In this document: positions 36,309-44,699 of the stretch, in pieces | Position numbering within the stretch: the first letter of the stretch is position 1 | Layout of the letters: the number at the start of each line of letters is the position of its first letter | Origin: Chloroflexota bacterium | Lineage (GTDB): Bacteria > Chloroflexota > Dehalococcoidia > Lucifugimonadales > UBA3495 | DNA: 64,000 nt | Reading direction: 5' to 3' | NCBI GenBank assembly: GCA_009840135.1 | Contig: VXOH01000008.1 | Coordinates: forward strand, 5,450-69,449 | The notes under the pieces: model-generated | What the model was told of the DNA's origin: nothing | What the model saw: the letters and a program-made list of their open reading frames with translations, nothing else | Databases searched by the model: none | Made by a program: the position numbers and the translations under genes

Positions 36309-36737
36309 ATGAGAATCCCTATGAAAGTGGACTATGGCGTCCGTGCCCTGGTGGAATTGGCGATGCATTATGGCGAAGGCCAGGTGCATACCTCCGAGAT
36401 AGCTTCCAAGCAGGGAATACCCGAGTCCTATCTGGTCCAGCTCATGACCACTCTGAACAGGTGCGGTTTCGTTCAGAGTCGTCGAGGTCCCCAGGGTGGC
36501 CACATGCTGGCTATGGACCCTTCCACAGTCAATTTGCACATGATCATGACCACTCTGGATGGGAACAACTCACCTCTGGACTGCATAACTTACCCGACGG
36601 ACTGCATATTCGCCGATTCATGCGCCCAGCAGGAGATTTGGAAGTCCGTGGAAGAAGCGGTCCAGAACGTCCTCACCAATATAACCCTTGAACACCTGGC
36701 TCAAAGGCAAGAATACCTTTCGGCCCAAAATGCATAG
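36309..36737 (+). CDS. Rrf2 family transcriptional regulator (IscR/CymR-like)
   Basis: The segments KVDYGVRALVELAMH and the wHTH SEIASKQGIPESYLVQLM are present. An AGGAGG lies 8 nt upstream, and an extended -10 TGCTATAAT is at 36267..36275. Confidence 0.85.
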   Translation: MRIPMKVDYGVRALVELAMHYGEGQVHTSEIASKQGIPESYLVQLMTTLNRCGFVQSRRGPQGGHMLAMDPSTVNLHMIMTTLDGNNSPLDCITYPTDCIFADSCAQQEIWKSVEEAVQNVLTNITLEHLAQRQEYLSAQNA

Positions 36738-36804
36738 CGCCTGACCTGGTCCATGCCTTCCTTGCAAGAATTGACCCGCCAGCTAGGAAAAACCAGGCCT
36801 TTCC

Positions 36805-36833
36805 TTGACAATCCGATAGGCGGGGGATAGACT
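36805..36833 (+). promoter_or_regulatory. Sigma-70-type promoter (TTGACA-N17-TAGACT) for the leader of the E1 / cysteine synthase operon
   Basis: The -35 hexamer is exact, the spacer is 17 nt, and the -10 fits TAnnnT. Confidence 0.6.
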
Positions 36834-36844
36834 CTAGTCCAGCG

Positions 36845-36898
36845 ATGAATAGTAGCTATCGGGTAAGAAATCGAAGTTGCACCTGTCCCTATACATAG
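36845..36898 (+). CDS. Candidate 17-aa leader peptide MNSSYRVRNRSCTCPYT (Cys-codon sensor)
   Basis: It is below the ORF-track size cutoff. TGC-ACC-TGT sits at and just before the 5' arm of hairpin 36882..36906, and the stop codon lies inside that hairpin. There is no obvious Shine-Dalgarno and the ATG is very close to the predicted transcription start. Confidence 0.4.
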   Translation: MNSSYRVRNRSCTCPYT

Positions 36899-36928
36899 GG
36901 GGCAGGTTAAGAATTCCGGCGAATGGAG

Positions 36929-36978
36929 CCTGCGCCCGCCCAGACTGGGCAGCCCGAAGGGGTGCGGGTTTTTCTTTT
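36929..36978 (+). terminator. Leader terminator / attenuator with an overlapping antiterminator segment
   Basis: CCCGC (36935-39) pairs with GCGGG (36964-68) and is followed by TTTTTCTTTT. CCTGCGCCC (36929-37) can instead pair with GGGGGCAGG (36898-906). Confidence 0.6.
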
Positions 36979-37100
36979 GCCTCGGATAAAGCCAATTTCT
37001 CATAGCGGCAGTTAGAGTTGCCACTACACAGGTCGCCCCAGGAGGCCGTATTGGGCCATAGGCAGTTTTCCTGCCGATTCTGAAGGAGGGTTTGCTAACC

Positions 37101-37943
37101 ATGACGCAACAACCACTGGCTCTAACCCCCGAACAGGTCAAACGTTACAGTCGCCACATCATCATGGGTGATGTGGGCAGCGCAGGACAGCGCAAGCTCA
37201 TGCAGTCCAAGGCCCTGATAGTAGGAGCGGGTGGGTTGGGTTCTCCCTCGGCCATTTACCTGGCCCTTGCCGGTGTGGGCACCCTGGGTATTGTTGATTT
37301 CGATGTGGTGGAAATATCCAACCTGCAGCGTCAGATTCTCCACCATTCCGACGACATCGGCCGCCCGAAGCTGCAATCGGCCATTGACAACATCCATGCC
37401 TATAATCCCGACGTCAAAGTTGTTCCCCATGAGGTACGGCTGGAGTCGGACAACGCCATTGAAATCATCAGTCAATACGACCTGGTAATCAACGGGGCGG
37501 ACAATTTCGCCACCCGCTACCTGGTCAACGATGCGTGCTACCTGCTGAATAAGCCGCTGGTGGATGGAAGCATCCTCATATTTGACGGCCAGTCAACCTT
37601 GTTCCTTCCCGGACAGGGATGCTATCGCTGCCTTTTCCCGTCGCCTCCCCCTCCGGGCATGGTCCCTAATTGCGCGGAAGCCGGCGTTCTCGGCGCCTTG
37701 ACCGGCCTCGTGGGCAGCATCCAGGCCACTGAGGCCCTTAAGTATTTCCTGGGCATCGGAGAAAGCCTCTGCTCCAGGCTCCTCCTGGTGGACGCCTTGA
37801 GCATGAGTTTCCGCGAGGTGAAGTTGAAGCGCAATCCGGCATGCCCGCTGTGCGGCGAAAATCCGACCGTAACTGAACTGATTGACTACGAGATCTTCTG
37901 CGGAGTAGCGGAGCCGGAGGCGGTTGGGGCCGCCGACAACTAA
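37101..37943 (+). CDS. ThiF/MoeB/HesA family E1-like adenylyltransferase (sulfur-carrier activating enzyme), with no rhodanese domain
   Basis: The segments RYSRHIIM, the nucleotide loop VGAGGLGSP, and the zinc motifs CYRC and CPLCG are present. The ATG at 37101 follows GAAGGAGGG. Confidence 0.85.
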   Translation: MTQQPLALTPEQVKRYSRHIIMGDVGSAGQRKLMQSKALIVGAGGLGSPSAIYLALAGVGTLGIVDFDVVEISNLQRQILHHSDDIGRPKLQSAIDNIHAYNPDVKVVPHEVRLESDNAIEIISQYDLVINGADNFATRYLVNDACYLLNKPLVDGSILIFDGQSTLFLPGQGCYRCLFPSPPPPGMVPNCAEAGVLGALTGLVGSIQATEALKYFLGIGESLCSRLLLVDALSMSFREVKLKRNPACPLCGENPTVTELIDYEIFCGVAEPEAVGAADN

Positions 37944-38061
37944 GCTGTGCAGTCTGATCAGGTCTTCACAGTGGGTGTTCCAACCGTGTGGAGGGGAGGA
38001 AGCTCCGCCGCAATGTTGGGGCCGAAGAAAACGCAGGGGGAGGATTAAACTGGTAAGCGAT

Positions 38062-39012
38062 ATGGTTACGCGGTTGGCATACAAGGGAATACTCGCGGCC
38101 ATTGGGAACACCCCGATGGTGGAGTTGCAGAACCTGAGCCCCAAGCCCGAAGTGCGTATCTTCGCCAAGCTGGAAGGGCAGAACCCCACCGGCAGCGTCA
38201 AAGACCGTATCGCACTGAAGATGATCGAGCGGGCCGAGGCTACCGGGGAAATTTCTCCCAACCGCACTATCCTGGAACCCACCAGTGGGAATACCGGCAT
38301 ATCGCTGGCAATGATTGGAAAGCTCAAAGGCTACAAAGTCACCGTAGTCATGCCGGAGAACGTGAGCGAAGAACGCAGCCAGTTACTCTATGCTTACGGC
38401 GCAGAGATAATTTTCTCCGATGGAGAGAAGGGCAGCAATGGTTCAATCGAGGTAGCCCAGGAACTGGCCGAGAAGAACCCCCATGACTACCTGATGATGT
38501 ACCAGTATGGGAATAGCGCCAACCCGGATGCTCACTACGAGACGACGGGCGAGGAGATCATTAACGCGGTTCCCGAAGTGGATACATTTGTTGCCGGATT
38601 GGGCACCGGCGGGACTTTGATGGGGGTTGCGCGCCGCCTTAAGGAATACAATCCCAACGCCAAGATAGTTGCTGTTGCCCCGGAGCCGGATGACTTGATT
38701 TCCGGACTGCGACGACTGGAAGATGGCTTCATTCCTCCCATTCTTGATATCAACATGCTGGATGCCCGGCTGCTGGTGGGCAGTCTGCCGGCTTTCCGAA
38801 CCACTAAGGAACTTCTTCACCAGGAAGGTATATTTGCGGGCATTTCCTCCGGTTCCGTTGTTTATGGCGCCATGAGGCAAGCGGAGCGAATGGACAGTGG
38901 CAACATCGTGTGCTTGCTGGCCGACGGAGGATGGAAGTACCTGAGCACGAGCCTGTGGACAAAAGACTACGATGAACTGGAGAAGGAAGTTCAGGGCAAA
39001 ATCTGGTGGTAG
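38062..39012 (+). CDS. Cysteine synthase (CysK/CysM family, PLP-dependent)
   Basis: The segments IGNTPMVEL, NPTGSVKDRIAL (PLP lysine) and GTGGTLMG are present. The ATG at 38062 is preferred over the track start at 37924. Confidence 0.9.
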   Translation: MVTRLAYKGILAAIGNTPMVELQNLSPKPEVRIFAKLEGQNPTGSVKDRIALKMIERAEATGEISPNRTILEPTSGNTGISLAMIGKLKGYKVTVVMPENVSEERSQLLYAYGAEIIFSDGEKGSNGSIEVAQELAEKNPHDYLMMYQYGNSANPDAHYETTGEEIINAVPEVDTFVAGLGTGGTLMGVARRLKEYNPNAKIVAVAPEPDDLISGLRRLEDGFIPPILDINMLDARLLVGSLPAFRTTKELLHQEGIFAGISSGSVVYGAMRQAERMDSGNIVCLLADGGWKYLSTSLWTKDYDELEKEVQGKIWW

Positions 39013-39142: not shown

Positions 39143-39381
39143 GTGCAATTCCCTTGGTTGATTTGGATAAATCACTTGACCCGTCTTTCGGCTCCTTAGC
39201 GCATGGGTGTCGGTTGAGGGCCCCTTGCCCGAGCCCCTGCCAAAGTTGAAAGCGTGTGGGGCGAATGATATACTTGACCGGTGCTTTGGCACGGAGCGGG
39301 TTAGTCCCGCTTTCTTGCTAATTGCCGCAAATTTTTAGATTTGGTTGCAACGTCAAGCAGCTTCAGGACGGGAGCGTGGCA

Positions 39382-40995
39382 GTGAAAAGCGACTTTTTAA
39401 TTGCGTTGACACAATTGGCCGCCGAACGCCATTTGCCCAAGGAGCAAGTGCTCCAGGCCATTGAGGTAGCCTTGGCGTCGGCCTTCAAAAAGGATAACCC
39501 TGCGGCGGGACAGAACATCACCGTCACTCTGAATCCCAATACCGGAGACGTGAGCGTTTTCGCGCTGAAGACGGTCGTTGAGGACGTTGAAGATCCGGCC
39601 AGGGAAATATCCCTGCAGGAAGCAGCGGGCATTAAGCGAAACGTGGAGCTGGGCGATGAAGTTGCCGCAGCCGAACCGCTGCCCCACAATGCCAGCCGGA
39701 TAGCGGCGCAGACGGCCAAGCAGGTGGTTCTGCAGCGCCTGCGGGAGGCTGAGCGGGAGCTTCTGTACGAAGAATTCCTTCAGCATCGGCAGGACATTAT
39801 TACGGGAGTTGTTGAGCAACTGGAGCCCAACCGAAGTATCTTGCTGGACATGGGACGTGCCCAGGCTATTATGCCCCTGGACGAACAGGTCCCCACCGAG
39901 CGGTACAAGAAGGGGCAGCGAATCAAGGTCTTTGTTCTGGATGTCCGCAACGGCCCCAAGGGTCCGGAAATTCTGGTATCCCGCAGTGACCGGGACATGT
40001 TGAAGAGACTGTTCGAGATCGAAGTTCCGGAAGTCTATAACGGTACTGTCGAAATCAAGGGAATCTCCAGGGATGCGGGTTTCCGCAGCAAAGTAGCCGT
40101 TCACTCCACCCAGGAAGGGGTTGACCCTGTCGGGGCGTGCATTGGGCTCCGGGGCAACCGAATACAGAGCATTGTTAACGAACTGCAGGGCGAGAAAATA
40201 GACGTCGTTCCCTGGGAGCCGGATCCCAGGGGATTCATCGCCAAGGCTATCAGCCCCTCGGAAGTCGTTCACGTGGAGCTAAGCCCGCCCGAGCAAACCG
40301 CTATTGTCGTGGTTCCCGACCGTCAGCTTTCGCTGGCCATCGGAAAGGAAGGGCAAAACGCCAGGCTGGCAGCTCGACTGGTGGGATGGCGGCTGGACAT
40401 CAAGGGTCTGACAGAGTGGGAGGAGATCAAGGAGACCCGCCAGCGTGAGATTGAAGAGCAACGGCGCCTGGCCGCTCTTGAAGCCGCAGCAGCCGTGGTA
40501 GAGGCCTCAGATGAAGAACTTACCGCGGAACAGGCCGTTGCCGAGGCTGAAGCCATTGTCGCCGAGGCCGAAACCGCCCTCGAAACGGAGCGCGATGCTG
40601 CCACTGTAACCGAAGGAGCCTCGGAGACACCGGTGACTGAGGCCGAAGCAGCCCCGGCGGCGGTGGTAGAGCCCATTGATGAAGACGCCCTGCTTGAAGA
40701 ATTAATTCGGGAAGAGGAAGGAACCAGTGAAGCTGGTGAGCAGACTGAGGACAGCCTCAGTGTTGATGACCTTGCCTCCTTCACACTCGACGATATTATG
40801 GAAGACGATGAGGAGGAAGCGGATTTCTTCCCCGAACTGCCTGAAGTCCCCATACTAACTCCCGACGCAGGGAAGATTCGGTTCGCAGAGGACATAGTAG
40901 GCGAAAGTCGCGGTGGTGGCCGGGGCGGCCGGCGCTCCAGGCGAAACACCGGCGGCGGAGCGGGCCGGGGCGCCCGGCGCGGCGGTGGAAGGTAG
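39382..40995 (+). CDS. nusA: Transcription termination/antitermination factor NusA with a long acidic region and an RGG-rich C-terminal tail
   Basis: The N-terminal domain, S1 domain and two KH domains are present (GACIGLRGNRIQSIVNEL, AIGKEGQNARLAARL). The GTG at 39382 (or 39376) follows GGGAG. The tail is SRGGGRGGRRSRRNTGGGAGRGARRGGGR. Confidence 0.9.
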   Translation: MKSDFLIALTQLAAERHLPKEQVLQAIEVALASAFKKDNPAAGQNITVTLNPNTGDVSVFALKTVVEDVEDPAREISLQEAAGIKRNVELGDEVAAAEPLPHNASRIAAQTAKQVVLQRLREAERELLYEEFLQHRQDIITGVVEQLEPNRSILLDMGRAQAIMPLDEQVPTERYKKGQRIKVFVLDVRNGPKGPEILVSRSDRDMLKRLFEIEVPEVYNGTVEIKGISRDAGFRSKVAVHSTQEGVDPVGACIGLRGNRIQSIVNELQGEKIDVVPWEPDPRGFIAKAISPSEVVHVELSPPEQTAIVVVPDRQLSLAIGKEGQNARLAARLVGWRLDIKGLTEWEEIKETRQREIEEQRRLAALEAAAAVVEASDEELTAEQAVAEAEAIVAEAETALETERDAATVTEGASETPVTEAEAAPAAVVEPIDEDALLEELIREEEGTSEAGEQTEDSLSVDDLASFTLDDIMEDDEEEADFFPELPEVPILTPDAGKIRFAEDIVGESRGGGRGGRRSRRNTGGGAGRGARRGGGR

Positions 40996-41047
40996 TCTCA
41001 GCCTCCTTTAGATGCTTTAGTGTTCAAGTGCGGGGAGGAGGCGAAAA

Positions 41048-41344
41048 TTGGCTCGTGCCCGGCATATACCTGAACGTAAGTGTGTCGCCTGCGGTCAACG
41101 CGTTCCCAAGCGCCTGTTGACCAGGATTGTCCGAACACCCCAGGGCGAAGTTCAAGCGGATTCCACCGGAAAAACCTCAGGCCGTGGGGCCTACCTCTGT
41201 CATTCCCCCGACTGCTGGGAAAGGGGTTTGCGAAAGGGGGGCCTGGAAAAGAGCTTGCGCTTAAAGATTGCGTCGCAGGACCTCGACAGTCTAATGGACT
41301 TCTATCGCGCGCAAGTGGTGTCGCCATCCCTCCGGGAGGATTAA
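41048..41344 (+). CDS. ylxR: YlxR/RnpM family protein (DUF448)
   Basis: The segments RKCVACGQRVPKRLLTRIV and GRGAYLC are present, in the conserved position between nusA and infB. Confidence 0.85.
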   Translation: MARARHIPERKCVACGQRVPKRLLTRIVRTPQGEVQADSTGKTSGRGAYLCHSPDCWERGLRKGGLEKSLRLKIASQDLDSLMDFYRAQVVSPSLRED

Positions 41345-41345
41345 T

Positions 41346-43139
41346 ATGACTACAGAAGGACAAACGAGGGCAGGTCGCAGGGGCCCGTCTCGAACCCTGG
41401 TTCTGCCGGAAACATTGACCGTCAAACAACTGTCGGAACTGGTTGACCAGAGTCCGGTAGACGTCATCAAACAACTGATGCGTAACGGCATCATGGTTTC
41501 AATGAACCAGATGATTGACCACGAGGTCGCTTCCCTGGTAACAGCCGCTTACGGCATTCGCACCAGGGTAGCCGAGGCCGTAGCCGAGACCGGGTCCCTC
41601 AACAGCTCGGATGGGATGATTGAGGATGAGGCCAGCTTTGTGTCCCGGCCACCTGTGGTTACTATTCTTGGACATGTTGACCATGGCAAAACCAGCCTCC
41701 TGGACTCCATAAGAAACGCACACGTCGCCGACCGGGAGGTTGGTGGCATTACCCAGCACATTGGCGCCTACCAGGTCGAATACAGCGGACAGAGGATCAC
41801 TTTCCTTGACACCCCGGGACATGAAGCATTTACATCAATCCGCTCCCGTGGCGCCCGCGTTACCGACATTGCCGTGTTGGTGGTCGCAGCCGACGATGGC
41901 ATAATGCCGCAAACCGAGGAAGCTATTGACCATGCCAAGGCGGCAGAAGTACCCATCGTTGTCGCAATTAACAAAATGGACCTCCCGGGGGCAGACCCCG
42001 AGCGGGTCAAGCGTCAGTTGAGCCAGCACAATTTGCTGGTCGAGGACTGGGGTGGCGATATTATTTCGGTTCCGGTCTCAGCCAGGACGGGTGACGGCAT
42101 AGACGAACTGCTGGAAAATCTTTTGATTGTGGCCGAAATCTCGGAATTAAAGGCCAATCCTTCCCGCTCAGCCAGCGGCGTGGTAATTGAAGCCAAGCTG
42201 GACCGAAAGCGCGGGCCTATGGCCACGGTGCTGGTCCAGAGTGGGACCCTGGGCGTAGGTGACTTTGTTATAGCCGGGACAGCCTGGGGGCGCGTCAAGG
42301 CCATCAATAACGACCGGGGACGCGCGGTTAAGGGAGTTCTACCGGGGGAGCCTGCCGAACTATTGGGCTTCGGGTCGCTGCCCGAAGCCGGTGATTTAAT
42401 GGCGGTTATGCCCAACGAAAGAACTGTACGGGGTCTGGCCCATGACCGGGAAAGGGCAAAGTCCAGCCAGCAATCCCAGGTCCGCGCCCTCACCCTGGAA
42501 GAGGTAGTAAAGCAGATAGACGCCGGTGACATCAAGGAACTCAACCTGGTACTAAAGGCTGATGTTCAGGGCAGCGTTGAAGCCGTTCGCCAGTCCCTGG
42601 AACGCCTGACCGAAGCGGAGGCCAGGGTGCGCATACTTCACGCCGGCAGCGGAAATGTGACCGAGTCTGATGTGTTGCTGGCCAGCGCCTCTGAAGCTAT
42701 CATTGTGGGCTTCGCGGTGGGGAATGAAATCGGCGTGGAACGGGTAGCAGAGCGCATGGGCGTTGAAATTCGCCACTATTCAATCATTTATCAGATGATT
42801 GATGATGTGGAACAGGCCCTTCACGGCATGCTTGAACCCACCTTTACCGACATAGTCCTGGGAGAAGCAGAGGTCAGGGAGATTTTCCCGGCCCGCCGAA
42901 ACGTCAAGATTGCCGGCTGCCGCGTTACAAACGGCAGAATTCCTCGAGGTTCGGCTATCCGCATCCTGCGGGACGGCGAACTGCTGGAGGAAACCTCCAT
43001 TGCCAGCTTGCGCCACTTCCGGGATGAAGTAAACGAAATCACCAACGGAATGGACTGCGGCATCCTCCTGGAAGATTATAACGACTTCGAAATCGGCGAC
43101 ATTCTTCAGGCCCACCGGCAGGAACGAAGCCAGAGATAG
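41346..43139 (+). CDS. infB: Translation initiation factor IF-2 (short N-terminal form)
   Basis: The motifs [20 protein letters not shown] and NKMD, and the C-terminal domains, are present. Confidence 0.95.
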
Positions 43140-43218
43140 TCCCGGACCCCACGTCCCCACCTTCAGCAAGGTGGGGTTCCCGTTATGGTTCCCTTACTTG
43201 CCTTTAGCGGAGAATGCC

Positions 43219-43632
43219 ATGTCCCGCCGTGCCGATCGAATTAACGGGCTGCTGCGCGAGGAGATCAGTCTCCTGCTTTCCAGGGAGATAAAGGACCCGC
43301 GCCTCGACGGGTTAATAAGCATTACCCGCGTGGATACCTCCAGTGACTTGCGAAACGCCAGGGTTTTCCTGAGTGTGATGGGAGACCAGGCAAGCAAGGA
43401 CTCAGCACTGGAGGGAATTCAATCCGCGGCCAGCTTTCTTCGACGCTCCCTCCGAGACCGCCTGAAGCTCCGATACGTACCCTTCCTCAAGTTTGCCATT
43501 GATGAAAGCATCGAAGACGCAGACACGTTGCTCCGTTTGATGGACCAGATCCAGGACAGGCCGTCAACGCCGGACCATCCACCAGAAGCCCCCGCTTATA
43601 ACGGCCCTCTCTCCTTCTCTCACGGGAGTTAA
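43219..43632 (+). CDS. rbfA: Ribosome-binding factor A
   Basis: The N-terminus reads MSRRADRINGLLREEISLLLSREIKDPRL. The ATG at 43219 is preferred over the track start. Confidence 0.9.
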   Translation: MSRRADRINGLLREEISLLLSREIKDPRLDGLISITRVDTSSDLRNARVFLSVMGDQASKDSALEGIQSAASFLRRSLRDRLKLRYVPFLKFAIDESIEDADTLLRLMDQIQDRPSTPDHPPEAPAYNGPLSFSHGS

Positions 43633-43637
43633 TTTCG

Positions 43638-44699
43638 ATGACTACAGGCAGAAACGGCCCCAATGGCGGCGGAGCGCCACCCGTCAGCGGCTTCATCAAC
43701 CTGTACAAGCCCATAGGAATCACCTCCATGGATGCCCTGCGGCAAGTCAAGACGGTCACGGGGCAGAAGAAAAAAGTAGGACACGCGGGAACAATGGACC
43801 CGTTGGCCCGGGGTGTGCTTCCCATTTGCTTTGGACAGGCAACGCGCCTCATGGAGTACGTTGTGGATGGAAACAAACGCTACTGCATGGACATCCGGCT
43901 GGGTGCAACAACCCAGACCTATGACTCGGAAGGCGAAATCACTCAAGTCCGGAAGCCTGACTACGTCACGCCTGAGATGATAAATGAAGCCTTCCCACCC
44001 TTCCTTGGTACCATTGAACAGAAACCTCCCATGTACAGCGCGGTAAAGGTTGGCGGCCAGAGACTATACAAGCTGGCCCGGGCAGGCGTAGAAATAGACC
44101 GGGCGTCAAGGACCGTAGAAGTTTTCGACATCAGGTTGACCGGCTTCAATCTGCCCACAATCACCCTGGAGGTGGAATGTGGCCGCGGGGTTTACATGCG
44201 TTCTCTGGCCCATGACCTGGGAGCCGTCCTGGGTTGCGGCGGATTTGTAACCGATTTAGAGCGGCAATACTGTGCCGGGTTTGAATCGTCCGACGGCGTT
44301 ACCCCCCAGGACCTGGCAGCTGAAGTTGACCGTTGCCCCGATTCCGAGGCATGGAAGCTCCACCTGTTTCCCATTGACTACGTTCTCCAGAAATTCAGAA
44401 CAGTCATCCTGGGAGAGGCGGCAGAAAAGGGTCTGAAGAACGGTCAGGCAGTTTCAGCGGGCAGGTCAGCGCCCGAAGCCGCTTACCTGGAACAATTCCG
44501 GGCATACAGCCAGGACGGCAGGTTCCTGGCCCTGGTCCGCTACGAACGGGCCGGAAACCTCTGGCAGCCGGTCAAGGTATTCCACAGCGTTGAGTCTTCC
44601 CCATACGCAACCCCTCAACCATCTCCCGTTGACCGAGCCCCATACGGGCACAAATCTGTGGGAAATAGTGCAGCTACTCCCAATTGCCTTGACAATTAG
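43638..44699 (+). CDS. truB: tRNA pseudouridine(55) synthase
   Basis: The segments GFINLYKPIGITS, GHAGTMDPLARG and a PUA-like C-terminus with an extension are present. Confidence 0.9.
   Translation: MTTGRNGPNGGGAPPVSGFINLYKPIGITSMDALRQVKTVTGQKKKVGHAGTMDPLARGVLPICFGQATRLMEYVVDGNKRYCMDIRLGATTQTYDSEGEITQVRKPDYVTPEMINEAFPPFLGTIEQKPPMYSAVKVGGQRLYKLARAGVEIDRASRTVEVFDIRLTGFNLPTITLEVECGRGVYMRSLAHDLGAVLGCGGFVTDLERQYCAGFESSDGVTPQDLAAEVDRCPDSEAWKLHLFPIDYVLQKFRTVILGEAAEKGLKNGQAVSAGRSAPEAAYLEQFRAYSQDGRFLALVRYERAGNLWQPVKVFHSVESSPYATPQPSPVDRAPYGHKSVGNSAATPNCLDN

Follow-up and report, generated by a model that had tools for sequence, protein, structure and literature searches.

Short open reading frames that carry codons for the product of the operon they precede are the hallmark of the classical leader-peptide attenuators of amino-acid operons, including the trpL, hisL, pheL, leuL, thrL and ilv leaders of proteobacteria. 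In Firmicutes, the Cys T-box and the S-box/SAM riboswitches sense uncharged tRNA or SAM directly via large conserved domains. Cysteine leader-peptide attenuators are a kind already known, as translational devices in mycobacteria and as a predicted motif upstream of cysS. The mycobacterial polycysteine leaderless small ORF (sORF) attenuators, such as Ms5788A, precede cysteine and sulfur operons (Canestrari et al. 2020, 10.1101/834739), and the one that has been analysed in detail works at the level of translation, where it unmasks a Shine-Dalgarno (SD) sequence, and no terminator hairpins were found in it (10.1101/834739). A ribosome-mediated attenuator has also been predicted before cysS in Rhodobacterales, namely the uORFC-8-2 motif (Brewer et al. 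2021, PMC8632094), and further candidate Cys leader peptides have been reported (Seliverstov et al. 2005, PMC1262725). A literature search found no described cysteine attenuator from Chloroflexi or SAR202.

The window, a 64,000-nucleotide stretch of DNA from a SAR202 Chloroflexota genome, contains a leader upstream of a cysteine-synthesis operon that is very probably a cysteine-specific ribosome-mediated (leader-peptide) transcription attenuator, and the operon is most likely switched on by low levels of charged tRNA-Cys (Table 1). The computed basis comprises the sequence elements and their conservation, codon-level selection for Cys, the conservation and covariation of three helices and an in silico switch, from which we infer the transcription start, sORF translation, stalling, termination and response to cysteine. 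As in the trp/his class, a short ORF holds codons for the operon's own amino-acid product, segments 1 to 4 can form 1:2, 2:3 and 3:4 pairings ending in a U-run intrinsic terminator, and the stop codon is placed such that a terminating ribosome would cover segment 2; as in trpL, there are just two regulatory codons. Unlike that class, the leader would sense cysteine, its Cys codons alternate (C-x-C) rather than standing in tandem, it lacks an SD, and its start codon lies 6-16 nt from the -10 box across homologous loci. The host is a member of the Chloroflexota, there is no sequence similarity to the trp/his leaders, and no Rfam leader family matches.

The mycobacterial sORFs share with the SAR202 leader a Cys-codon sORF that lacks an SD, lies at the 5′ transcript end (a predicted one in SAR202) and precedes cysteine or sulfur operons, as well as Cys codons near the peptide C-terminus and the use of one design at several operons per genome (the "ribulon" idea). 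They differ in having runs of at least two consecutive Cys codons, whereas the window peptide has none that are consecutive and the SAR202 leader conserves a U-run terminator; the sequences are unrelated and the phylum is different. Like the SAR202 leader, uORFC-8-2 has a conserved AUG, two conserved Cys codons (UGC/UGU) in its first stem and a U-run after its second. Its Cys codons are in tandem at positions 14-15 in contrast to positions 12 and 14 in the window, and it controls cysteinyl-tRNA synthetase, whereas the SAR202 leader precedes moeB and cysK/M or sulfite reductase. It is alphaproteobacterial and unrelated in sequence, and both it and the SAR202 leader are predictions. The Cys T-box and S-box share a choice between terminator and antiterminator before cysteine and sulfur genes, but the SAR202 leader has no large conserved RNA domain of their type and no Rfam match.

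Table 1. Features of the candidate attenuator and its neighbouring genes (window coordinates).
Feature	Position	Strand	Evidence or remark
Rrf2-family transcriptional regulator gene	36309..36737	+	Pfam Rrf2 E=1e-34; NCBIfam rrf2_super above cut-off
Sigma-70-type promoter, TTGACA-17-TAGACT	36805..36833	+	TTGAC-N17/18-TAnnnT at equivalent place in 63 loci
Leader sORF MNSSYRVRNRSCTCPYT, 17 codons + TAG	36845..36898	+	No Shine-Dalgarno; ATG 11 nt past -10 box
Putative regulatory codons TGC-ACC-TGT (Cys -6, Thr -5, Cys -4 from stop)	36878..36886	+	Cys conservation in 63 loci
Segment 1, 5′ arm of hairpin 1:2	36881..36890	+	MFE; helix 89% paired in 65 sequences
Segment 2, 3′ arm of 1:2 or 5′ arm of antiterminator 2:3	36898..36908	+	Folding, helix conservation; first base is the stop-codon G
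Segment 3, 3′ arm of antiterminator or 5′ arm of terminator	36927..36937	+	2:3 93% paired, slid controls 29-53%
Small hairpin GCCCA-GAC-UGGGC inside terminator stem	36938..36950	+	Predicted fold; sequence varies by lineage
Segment 4, terminator 3′ arm	36960..36968	+	Predicted fold, helix conservation
Intrinsic-terminator U-run TTTTTCTTTT	36969..36978	+	T-run conserved in alignment
Shine-Dalgarno GAAGGAGG of first structural gene	37082..37089	+	Sequence
MoeB/ThiF-family E1-like adenylyltransferase, 280 aa	37101..37943	+	Pfam ThiF E=4e-81; NCBIfam MoeB subfamily NF004281 above cut-off
Cysteine synthase, cysK/cysM subfamily, 317 aa	38059..39012	+	Pfam PALP; NCBIfam TIGR01136 cysKM 361.9 vs cut-off 344

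The promoter proposed in the first-pass annotation is present, with TTGACA at 36805-36810 and TAGACT at 36828-36833 separated by a 17-nt spacer (10/12 match); taken alone the site is not significant, with one such site expected by chance per 2 kb. The 17-codon ORF proposed along with it is also there, with its ATG at 36845 rather than 36846 and its TAG at 36896-36898. Among 63 loci the distance from the -10 box to the start codon is mostly 9-11 nt, with a mode of 10-11, and it is 7-9 nt in the sulfite-reductase copies described below; no SD is present, and given the full range of 6-16 nt the mRNA leader would be 0-5 nt long. The missing SD and the proximity of the ATG to the predicted transcription start had both been seen correctly and listed as weaknesses, but they recur as a conserved feature across the 63 loci, for which the best reading is leaderless or near-leaderless initiation of the kind used by the mycobacterial cysteine sORFs. 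The need for efficient translation of a near-leaderless mRNA in SAR202 counts against the attenuator reading, as predictions for a few Chloroflexi put the share of leaderless genes at only ~5% (PMC3160421). In 60/63 loci an in-frame ATG begins a frame that stays open as far as the Cys codons, whereas shuffles yield 2.0 ± 1.4 and the other two frames 0; the start codon is ATG in these 60 and TTG in the other three, and the frame is open in all 63. The peptide is 14-19 aa long in 61/63 loci, with N-terminal residues that are unconserved in a frame that stays open. A small 5′ hairpin is predicted at 36852-36880 in the window, inside this unconserved part of the coding sequence.

The Cys codons occupy the coordinates originally given, with TGC at 36878-36880 and TGT at 36884-36886 encoding peptide positions 12 and 14; they start 18 and 12 nt upstream of the stop codon. 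Alignment with orthologous leaders from 64 other species-level genomes revealed conserved Cys codons and compensatory helix changes, and both the ORF and its Cys codons are retained in relatives. Cys -6 is found in 63/63 loci, encoded by TGT in 34 and TGC in 29 and never replaced by TGA or TGG, Cys -4 is found in 61/63 and a third Cys at codon -8 in 19/63, and Cys makes up 15% of internal codons across the 63 loci. That the window peptide has just two Cys codons, which are not adjacent, was counted against the attenuator reading. The window peptide reads C-T-C, against C-x-C(-x-C) in most relatives; only a few (L006, L009, L029, L030, L118, L131) have Cys codons in direct succession.

The conservation of a C-terminal C-x-C-P-x-T motif in relatives could instead point to a functional CxC micropeptide, for example one that binds metal or sulfur or a leader peptide acting in trans, with the hairpins serving just as a terminator or stabiliser. 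Trans-acting leader peptides are known, and peTrpL appears in PMC7298713 as a leader peptide with a function in trans. The N-terminal two thirds of the SAR202 peptide are, however, without sequence constraint, stem 1 and the loop share nucleotides with Pro -3 and codon -1, and at codon -1 it is the nucleotides (ACA in 49, AAA in 7) and not the amino acid that are conserved. A micropeptide would also leave unexplained both the location of the element before two different sulfur-assimilation operons and the conserved alternative 2:3 pairing, and we consider it very unlikely as the primary function, although the peptide may have a moonlighting role.

All three helices postulated in the first-pass annotation exist, with adjusted boundaries. 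Hairpin 1:2 had been placed slightly off and pairs 36881-36890 with 36898-36907 over 10 bp, and its 3′ arm opens with the stop-codon G. Antiterminator 2:3 likewise has 10 bp, formed between 36898-36908 and 36927-36937, and contains a single G/G mismatch. The terminator, 3:4, joins 36929-36937 to 36960-36968 through 9 G/C-rich base pairs lengthened by A/G-U pairs; its stem and U-run are as described, but segment 3 forms the entire 5′ arm, beyond the overlap with CCCGC...GCGGG that had been noted. The window leader folds with z = -3.2 versus shuffles, and helices 1:2 and 3:4 together are 88% paired in the alignment versus 36-52% in slid controls; the 93% pairing of 2:3 was scored on an alignment that had not been fitted to it. 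Double changes include G-C to A-U both at the 3:4 pair 74/144 (8 sequences) and at the 2:3 pair 35/73 (4 sequences), the modest extent of covariation being due to the high conservation of the segments, and in the AT-rich locus L053 all four segments are rewritten with complementarity retained. Median energies in relatives are -16, -18.5 and -25.4 kcal/mol for 1:2, 2:3 and 3:4, respectively. A few loci, L006 and L009, have only a weak U-run.

Terminator/antiterminator logic of this type is also common to riboswitches, nucleotide-level conservation covers the segments and, within the loop, ACAUAG, and a regulator gene adjoins the leader, all of which would suit an RNA switch that binds a ligand, tRNA or protein (a riboswitch, a T-box-like element, or a target of Rrf2 or another factor) and in which the sORF is incidental. 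Rfam gave no match at the gathering threshold in the whole 64 kb, and searches of 36700-37150 at E<=10 returned chance-level matches only (mir-BART2, sau-30, ctRNA, snoRNA); T-box, SAM, MoCo and thiS/HMP-PP riboswitch readings were dropped because no Rfam match rose above chance. The conserved RNA amounts to two simple hairpins without an aptamer-sized domain, and Rrf2 proteins bind DNA. Although the sequence 5′ of segment 1 is unconserved, its frame stays open and its ATG keeps a fixed spacing from the -10 box, and Cys -6, at or outside the edge of stem 1, toggles between TGT and TGC only, which selection at the RNA level does not predict. Such a switch is therefore regarded as highly improbable.

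In the proposed attenuation mechanism, the RNA would start at the ATG of the sORF or a few nucleotides earlier and the sORF would be translated without an SD. With ample Cys-tRNA(Cys), the ribosome would reach the TAG, and because this abuts segment 2 the terminating ribosome would cover that segment, leaving segments 3 and 4 to make the terminator and RNA polymerase to halt at ~36978. With scarce Cys-tRNA(Cys), the ribosome would stall with TGC (36878) or TGT (36884) in its A site, sitting over segment 1 and leaving segment 2 free to pair with segment 3 once the latter is made, so that no terminator would form and transcription would read through into moeB-cysK/M. In the absence of translation, 1:2 and 3:4 would both form and lead to termination. 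The geometry is consistent with this scheme, as a ribosome with either Cys codon in the A site would cover segment 1 and not segment 2, and at the stop codon it would cover segment 2. The earlier reading, in which a stall at the Cys codons frees segment 2, forms the antiterminator and switches on cysteine synthesis, is well supported by comparative evidence, all of it computational.

Constrained folding of the window leader reproduces the alternative structures. The free RNA adopts 1:2 plus the terminator (-61.1 kcal/mol), masking of segment 1 causes the antiterminator to form and the terminator to be lost (-38.5 kcal/mol), and masking of segment 2 allows the terminator to form (-35.0 kcal/mol). 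When the mask extends to 12 nt beyond either Cys codon the minimum free energy (MFE) structure is the antiterminator, and when it extends beyond the stop codon it is the terminator. In equilibrium full-transcript folding of relatives with segment 1 masked, the terminator remains the MFE structure in 32/57 moeB-type and 14/14 sulfite-reductase-type leaders, and a clean equilibrium three-state switch is obtained only in 25/57 and 0/14, respectively. The switch must therefore be assumed to be under kinetic control, with 2:3 forming before segment 4 is transcribed. Kinetic switching is usual in attenuators.

The element is present once in 64/80 orthologous loci from other Dehalococcoidia/SAR202 species and missing from the remaining 16, and it always has moeB on one side and the Rrf2 gene (or other upstream DNA) on the other. 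A covariance model derived from 63 homologous leaders, the window's own leader among them, gives a single match in the window (36869-36988, 90 bits, E ~3e-21), with no second copy anywhere else in the 64 kb. Minus-strand matches of the model in the loci were set aside as the mere reverse complement of the terminator region.

Downstream of the leader, the MoeB-like gene and its SD, both part of the original description, lie at the expected place (SD 37082-37089, ATG 37101), and homologues of the protein are also 280 aa long. Since the nearest cysteine sORFs characterised by experiment act on translation (10.1101/834739), a translational attenuator of the mycobacterial type was also considered, and in two loci (L071 and L075) the terminator-like stem directly adjoins the SD. 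Against this, most loci conserve a T-run behind a G/C-rich stem, and the spacer between the sORF stop and moeB ranges in length from 85 to 243 nt, without evident sequence conservation between lineages. Unlike the mycobacterial case, the SD of the next gene lies >100 nt beyond the terminator at a variable distance and shows no sequestration, being unpaired with the leader in predicted folds of the window. Translational control has only a slim chance of being correct and is the least likely of the alternatives considered, and transcription attenuation remains the preferred reading.

On the upstream side, an Rrf2 gene directly precedes the leader in the window and in most relatives, including metagenome loci, and this adjacent regulator could provide the main or a parallel control. 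The best specific NCBIfam model for the window protein is CymR, with a score below the cut-off. An assignment of the terminator to the Rrf2 gene was rejected, as a conserved promoter and the sORF intervene between the two. A search of the window for a ThiS/CysO-like sulfur-carrier ORF (55-120 aa, ending in GG) returned only spurious antisense ORFs. Through the attenuator, the MoeB/ThiF-like E1 gene of these organisms would be tied to the synthesis of cysteine, which hints at a protein-thiocarboxylate (CysO/CysM-like) route with a carrier protein encoded outside the window.

The same leader design is found before a gene of the NirA/sulfite-reductase family and uroporphyrinogen-III synthase, which lends the attenuator reading independent support. 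These leaders contain 3-5 Cys codons in a CxCxC(xC)PPT arrangement and have a different terminator, the 5′ arm of which again overlaps segment 3. In at least one case, both leader types are present in one 3.92-Mb genome (L012 and L137), which suggests a small cysteine attenuation regulon. The chances appear evenly balanced that this extends to a multi-operon cysteine "ribulon" in SAR202/Dehalococcoidia, in which leaderless sORFs with alternating Cys codons in stem 1 drive classical attenuation at intrinsic terminators, acting on two or more sulfur-assimilation operons, among them moeB-cysK/M and sulfite reductase-hemD. Chloroflexota would then have its first described leader-peptide attenuator, and cysteine biosynthesis genes their first Cys attenuator of the terminator type; the system would also be a natural hybrid, combining the leaderless sORF sensors of mycobacteria with the trp-type mechanism of enterobacteria. 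In addition, the conserved ...C-P-(P)-T-stop tail and its ACA-UAG context might tune the dwell time of the terminating ribosome on segment 2.

SAR202 bacteria are abundant and uncultured members of the deep-ocean community, and to our knowledge essentially nothing is known of their gene regulation. The covariance model and peptide signature are ready for use in annotating missed sORFs in Chloroflexota metagenome-assembled genomes, and the ratio of leader read-through to termination in metatranscriptomes could report on limitation by cysteine or sulfur in situ. Sensing of cysteine by a ribosome on an sORF without an SD would reach beyond Actinobacteria, and such a sensor would be able to couple to a classical terminator.

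The leader upstream of the MoeB/ThiF-family gene is very probably a cysteine-responsive, ribosome-mediated transcription attenuator, as the first-pass annotation had proposed; the observation itself holds, and comparative and folding evidence supports the interpretation. The names of MoeB homologues and of related contigs assign the window to SAR202/Dehalococcoidia in the phylum Chloroflexota. Reading of positions 36500-37400 recovers every element that it had named, including promoter, sORF, Cys codons, hairpin (1:2), antiterminator (2:3), terminator (3:4) and downstream gene, with coordinates shifted by 1-2 nt. The 148-nt leader is more stable than its own shuffles (z = -3.2), and no Rfam family matched it. 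For the upstream Rrf2-family regulator, CymR is the top specific model, with a score below the cut-off. An imperfect inverted repeat (CCTGGT...ACCAGG, 36741-36801), also the site of a chance-level mir-BART2 match, sits downstream of the Rrf2 stop codon and ahead of the leader promoter; it could be the terminator of the Rrf2 gene, or an operator. The cysteine synthase gene is followed by nusA and infB, part of a same-strand nusA-infB-rbfA-truB cluster (39322-44699) directly 3' of it, whose NusA carries a long acidic and Gly/Arg-rich C-terminal tail.

Coordinates of the leader, its flanking genes and the second-operon leaders
Feature	Position	Detail
Rrf2-family regulator gene	36309-36737	upstream of leader
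Sigma-70-like promoter	36805-36810; 36828-36833	TTGACA, 17-nt spacer, TAGACT
sORF	ATG 36845 to TAG 36896-36898	peptide MNSSYRVRNRSCTCPYT
sORF Cys codons	36878-80; 36884-86	TGC; TGT
Hairpin 1:2	36881-36890 with 36898-36907	
Antiterminator 2:3	36898-36908 with 36927-36937	
Terminator core stem 3:4	36929-36937 with 36960-36968	
Small hairpin inside terminator stem	36938-36950	
Run after terminator stem	36969-36978	TTTTTCTTTT
SD of MoeB/ThiF-like gene	37082-37089	GAAGGAGG
MoeB/ThiF-family E1-like enzyme	37101-37943	280 aa, downstream of leader
cysK/cysM-subfamily cysteine synthase	38059-39012	after MoeB/ThiF-like gene
Second-operon leaders	L092 5311-5427; L125 627-730; L136 2737-2883; L137 2836-2986	and 16 further metagenome loci

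The coding character of the sORF is evident among 80 orthologous moeB loci from species-representative genomes (MoeB identity 73-96%). A promoter-anchored scan finds the same arrangement in the window and 62 of these loci, namely TTGAC-N17/18-TAnnnT, a start codon 6-16 nt further on (mode 10-11) and an ORF of 14-29 codons ending in C-x-C-P-x-T-stop. From the scanned leaders a covariance model was built, which places one copy in 64 of the 80 loci and one in the window, with no second copy within the 64 kb; the remaining 16 loci lack the Cys leader. The predicted conservation of the ORF and its Cys codons is borne out: with codons anchored on the stop, Cys occupies codon -6 in all 63 loci, codon -4 in 61 and codon -8 in 19, and makes up 152 of 1002 internal codons (15%), while the sequence upstream of codon -8 is not conserved. 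The peptide is 14-19 aa long in 61 of 63 loci, and an in-frame ATG with an open frame up to the Cys codons is present in 60, with TTG at the same place in the other three, compared with 2.0 +/- 1.4 in shuffles of the same regions and 0 in the other two frames. Codon -6 is situated at the margin of stem 1 or beyond it, and its balance of TGT (34) and TGC (29) is predicted by selection for Cys codons and not by selection on RNA sequence. A riboswitch or protein-binding switch in which the ORF is incidental is contradicted by this codon-level signature, and no conserved aptamer-like domain is present.

Codon -1, by contrast, is conserved as nucleotides, being ACA in 49 and AAA in seven of the 63 loci, rather than as an amino acid. 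In the window (36893-36898) and its relatives the stop is TAG in 61 of 63, preceded by Pro or Pro-Pro with a frequent C-P-P-T tail, and the A-A-UAG loop around the last sense codon and stop is conserved at the nucleotide level; this loop and tail may adjust termination, or how long the ribosome dwells on segment 2. Three loci depart from the pattern: in L033 (2301-2426) a 2-nt deletion shifts the frame after C-D-C and the ORF continues, in L007 (2244-2309) CAG replaces the TAG and another in-frame TAG follows after four codons, still within segment 2 or adjacent to it, and in L027 (2324-2377) the Cys at codon -4 is lost. These could be sequencing errors, decaying or tolerated variants, and are informative rather than damaging to the coding case. 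Six moeB loci have no sORF: L067, L072 and L073 (at about 100 nt ahead of moeB) and L077-L079. They carry instead a -10-like box (TATTAT/TATACT) and after it, near the SD, a CTGCGCC...GGCGCAG hairpin, which may represent a degenerate or altogether different regulatory element.

The three mutually alternative helices that had been proposed are upheld by pairing conservation and folding energies. In the MAFFT alignment of 63 leaders, pairing holds for 86% of cells in 1:2 plus 3:4 and for 88% in 2:3, against 30-55% in slid controls. The covariance-model-fitted alignment of 65 leaders gives 88% for 1:2 and 3:4 and, for 2:3, to which it was not fitted, 93% versus 29-53% when slid. Covariation is modest because the segments are highly conserved; double changes include G-C to A-U at 3:4 pair 74/144 (eight sequences) and 2:3 pair 35/73 (four), and C-G to U-A at 73/145 (two). 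Matching positions in segments 2, 3 and 4 are altered together in L029 and L030. In L053 (MKQISVICACMNLQT), an AT-rich locus, none of the four segments keeps the usual sequence (CCTCC / GGAGGGT / ACCCTCC / GGAGGGTGT), yet the Cys-x-Cys codons and all of 1:2, 2:3 and 3:4 are retained. When each sequence is folded separately, the median energies are -16.0, -18.5 and -25.4 kcal/mol for 1:2, 2:3 and 3:4, respectively, with the 2:3 region more stable than shuffles (median z -2.4). A functional CxC micropeptide may be a side role but is an unlikely main one; it leaves both the conserved 2:3 pairing and the operon contexts unexplained. The conserved U-run and the long and variable spacer to the SD are both at odds with a translational attenuator.

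The geometry of the proposed transcription attenuator is consistent with ribosome control. The Cys codons begin 18 and 12 nt ahead of the stop codon, and segment 2 opens with the G of that stop codon. On the assumption, in line with established ribosome footprints, that protection extends about 12 nt 3' from the first A-site base, stalling at either Cys codon would cover segment 1 and leave segment 2 free, and a ribosome on the stop codon would cover segment 2. In constrained folding, the free window RNA forms 1:2 and the terminator (-61.1 kcal/mol), masking to 36890 or 36896 gives the antiterminator and no terminator stem (-38.5), and masking to 36908 restores the terminator (-35.0), so that all three states expected if a Cys-codon stall frees segment 2 are reproduced in the model. 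The same equilibrium switch occurs in 25 of 57 moeB-type leaders; the others keep the terminator as the MFE structure. A kinetic decision therefore has to be supposed, in which 2:3 would pair before segment 4 is transcribed, as is accepted for classical attenuators.

The missing SD and the proximity of the ATG to the predicted transcription start, previously listed as weaknesses, recur in all loci and are thus conserved features. No locus has an SD ahead of the sORF, and the start codon lies 6-16 nt from the -10 box in moeB-type and 7-9 nt in sulfite-reductase-type leaders. If transcription starts some 7 nt beyond the -10 box, 0-5 nt of mRNA would precede the start codon, and the sORF is thus likely leaderless or nearly so. 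Such an organization is seen in the experimentally studied mycobacterial cysteine sORFs (10.1101/834739); leaderless genes are predicted for only a minority of Chloroflexi genes (PMC3160421), so leaderless initiation stays putative here.

The leader appears to control at least two operons. Scanning metagenome contigs by exact pattern for the Cys-codon/stem-1/stop/segment-2 core matched 55 loci, 35 of them adjoining Rrf2, MoeB or CysK/M, and the other 20 match the covariance model (E 2e-16 to 3e-6). In the 16 of this second group with enough flank, the leader precedes a 615-625-aa gene with a common N-terminus; in the two scanned, L092 and L125, it encodes a hemoprotein of the NirA/sulfite-reductase family, and a uroporphyrinogen-III synthase-like gene comes next. 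The sORFs of this group contain 3-5 Cys codons (e.g., MESMINLFCRCTCTCPPT, MLVSHICICVCICTCPPT), and the terminator differs in sequence (CCCACC...GGTGGG plus U-run), its 5' arm overlapping segment 3. The reductase homologues are named Chloroflexota, Dehalococcoidia or SAR202. One 3,922,041-bp genome bears both a moeB-type leader (L012) and a reductase-type leader (L137, MICTAVSACFCTCPPT, 57.7 bits). A 3,302,831-bp contig bears the reductase-type leader L136 (MPEPITFNLCRCFCTCPPT), and a MoeB homologue (P0015) 95% identical to that of the window is also recorded on a contig of 3,302,831 bp. The reductase and uroporphyrinogen-III synthase-like genes of L136 are separated by two unannotated ORFs, each of about 100 aa. 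A Cys-codon leader common to two sulfur-assimilation operons is strong circumstantial evidence that the sensed signal is cysteine. A search of the 64-kb window for ThiS/MoaD/CysO-like small ORFs (55-120 aa with a terminal GG) gave none, and the 115-nt moeB-cysK/M spacer (37944-38058) is too short for one; should the E1-like enzyme act in cysteine synthesis by way of a protein thiocarboxylate, the carrier gene must be elsewhere.

Mechanistically the element belongs with the trp/his-type leader-peptide attenuators, and it shows each of their defining features that computation can test. Cys-rich candidate leader peptides without terminators have been described in actinobacteria (Seliverstov et al. 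2005, PMC1262725), in M. smegmatis leaderless polycysteine sORFs were shown to attenuate cysteine operons at the level of translation (Canestrari et al. 2020, 10.1101/834739), and upstream of cysS in Rhodobacterales a uORF of the terminator type is predicted, with a tandem pair of Cys codons (Brewer et al. 2021, PMC8632094). The present leader shares an sORF lacking an SD with the mycobacterial cases and a coupled intrinsic terminator with the classical and cysS cases, but falls outside the mycobacterial and cysS families, having non-consecutive Cys codons, different genes and phylum and no sequence relationship, and it shows no SD sequestration. No description of this SAR202/Chloroflexota Cys leader was found in the literature searched. 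The mechanism is a textbook one, placed in a phylum and in operons where no such attenuator had been described, and the element is well supported, unannotated and widespread in an ecologically important uncultured group.
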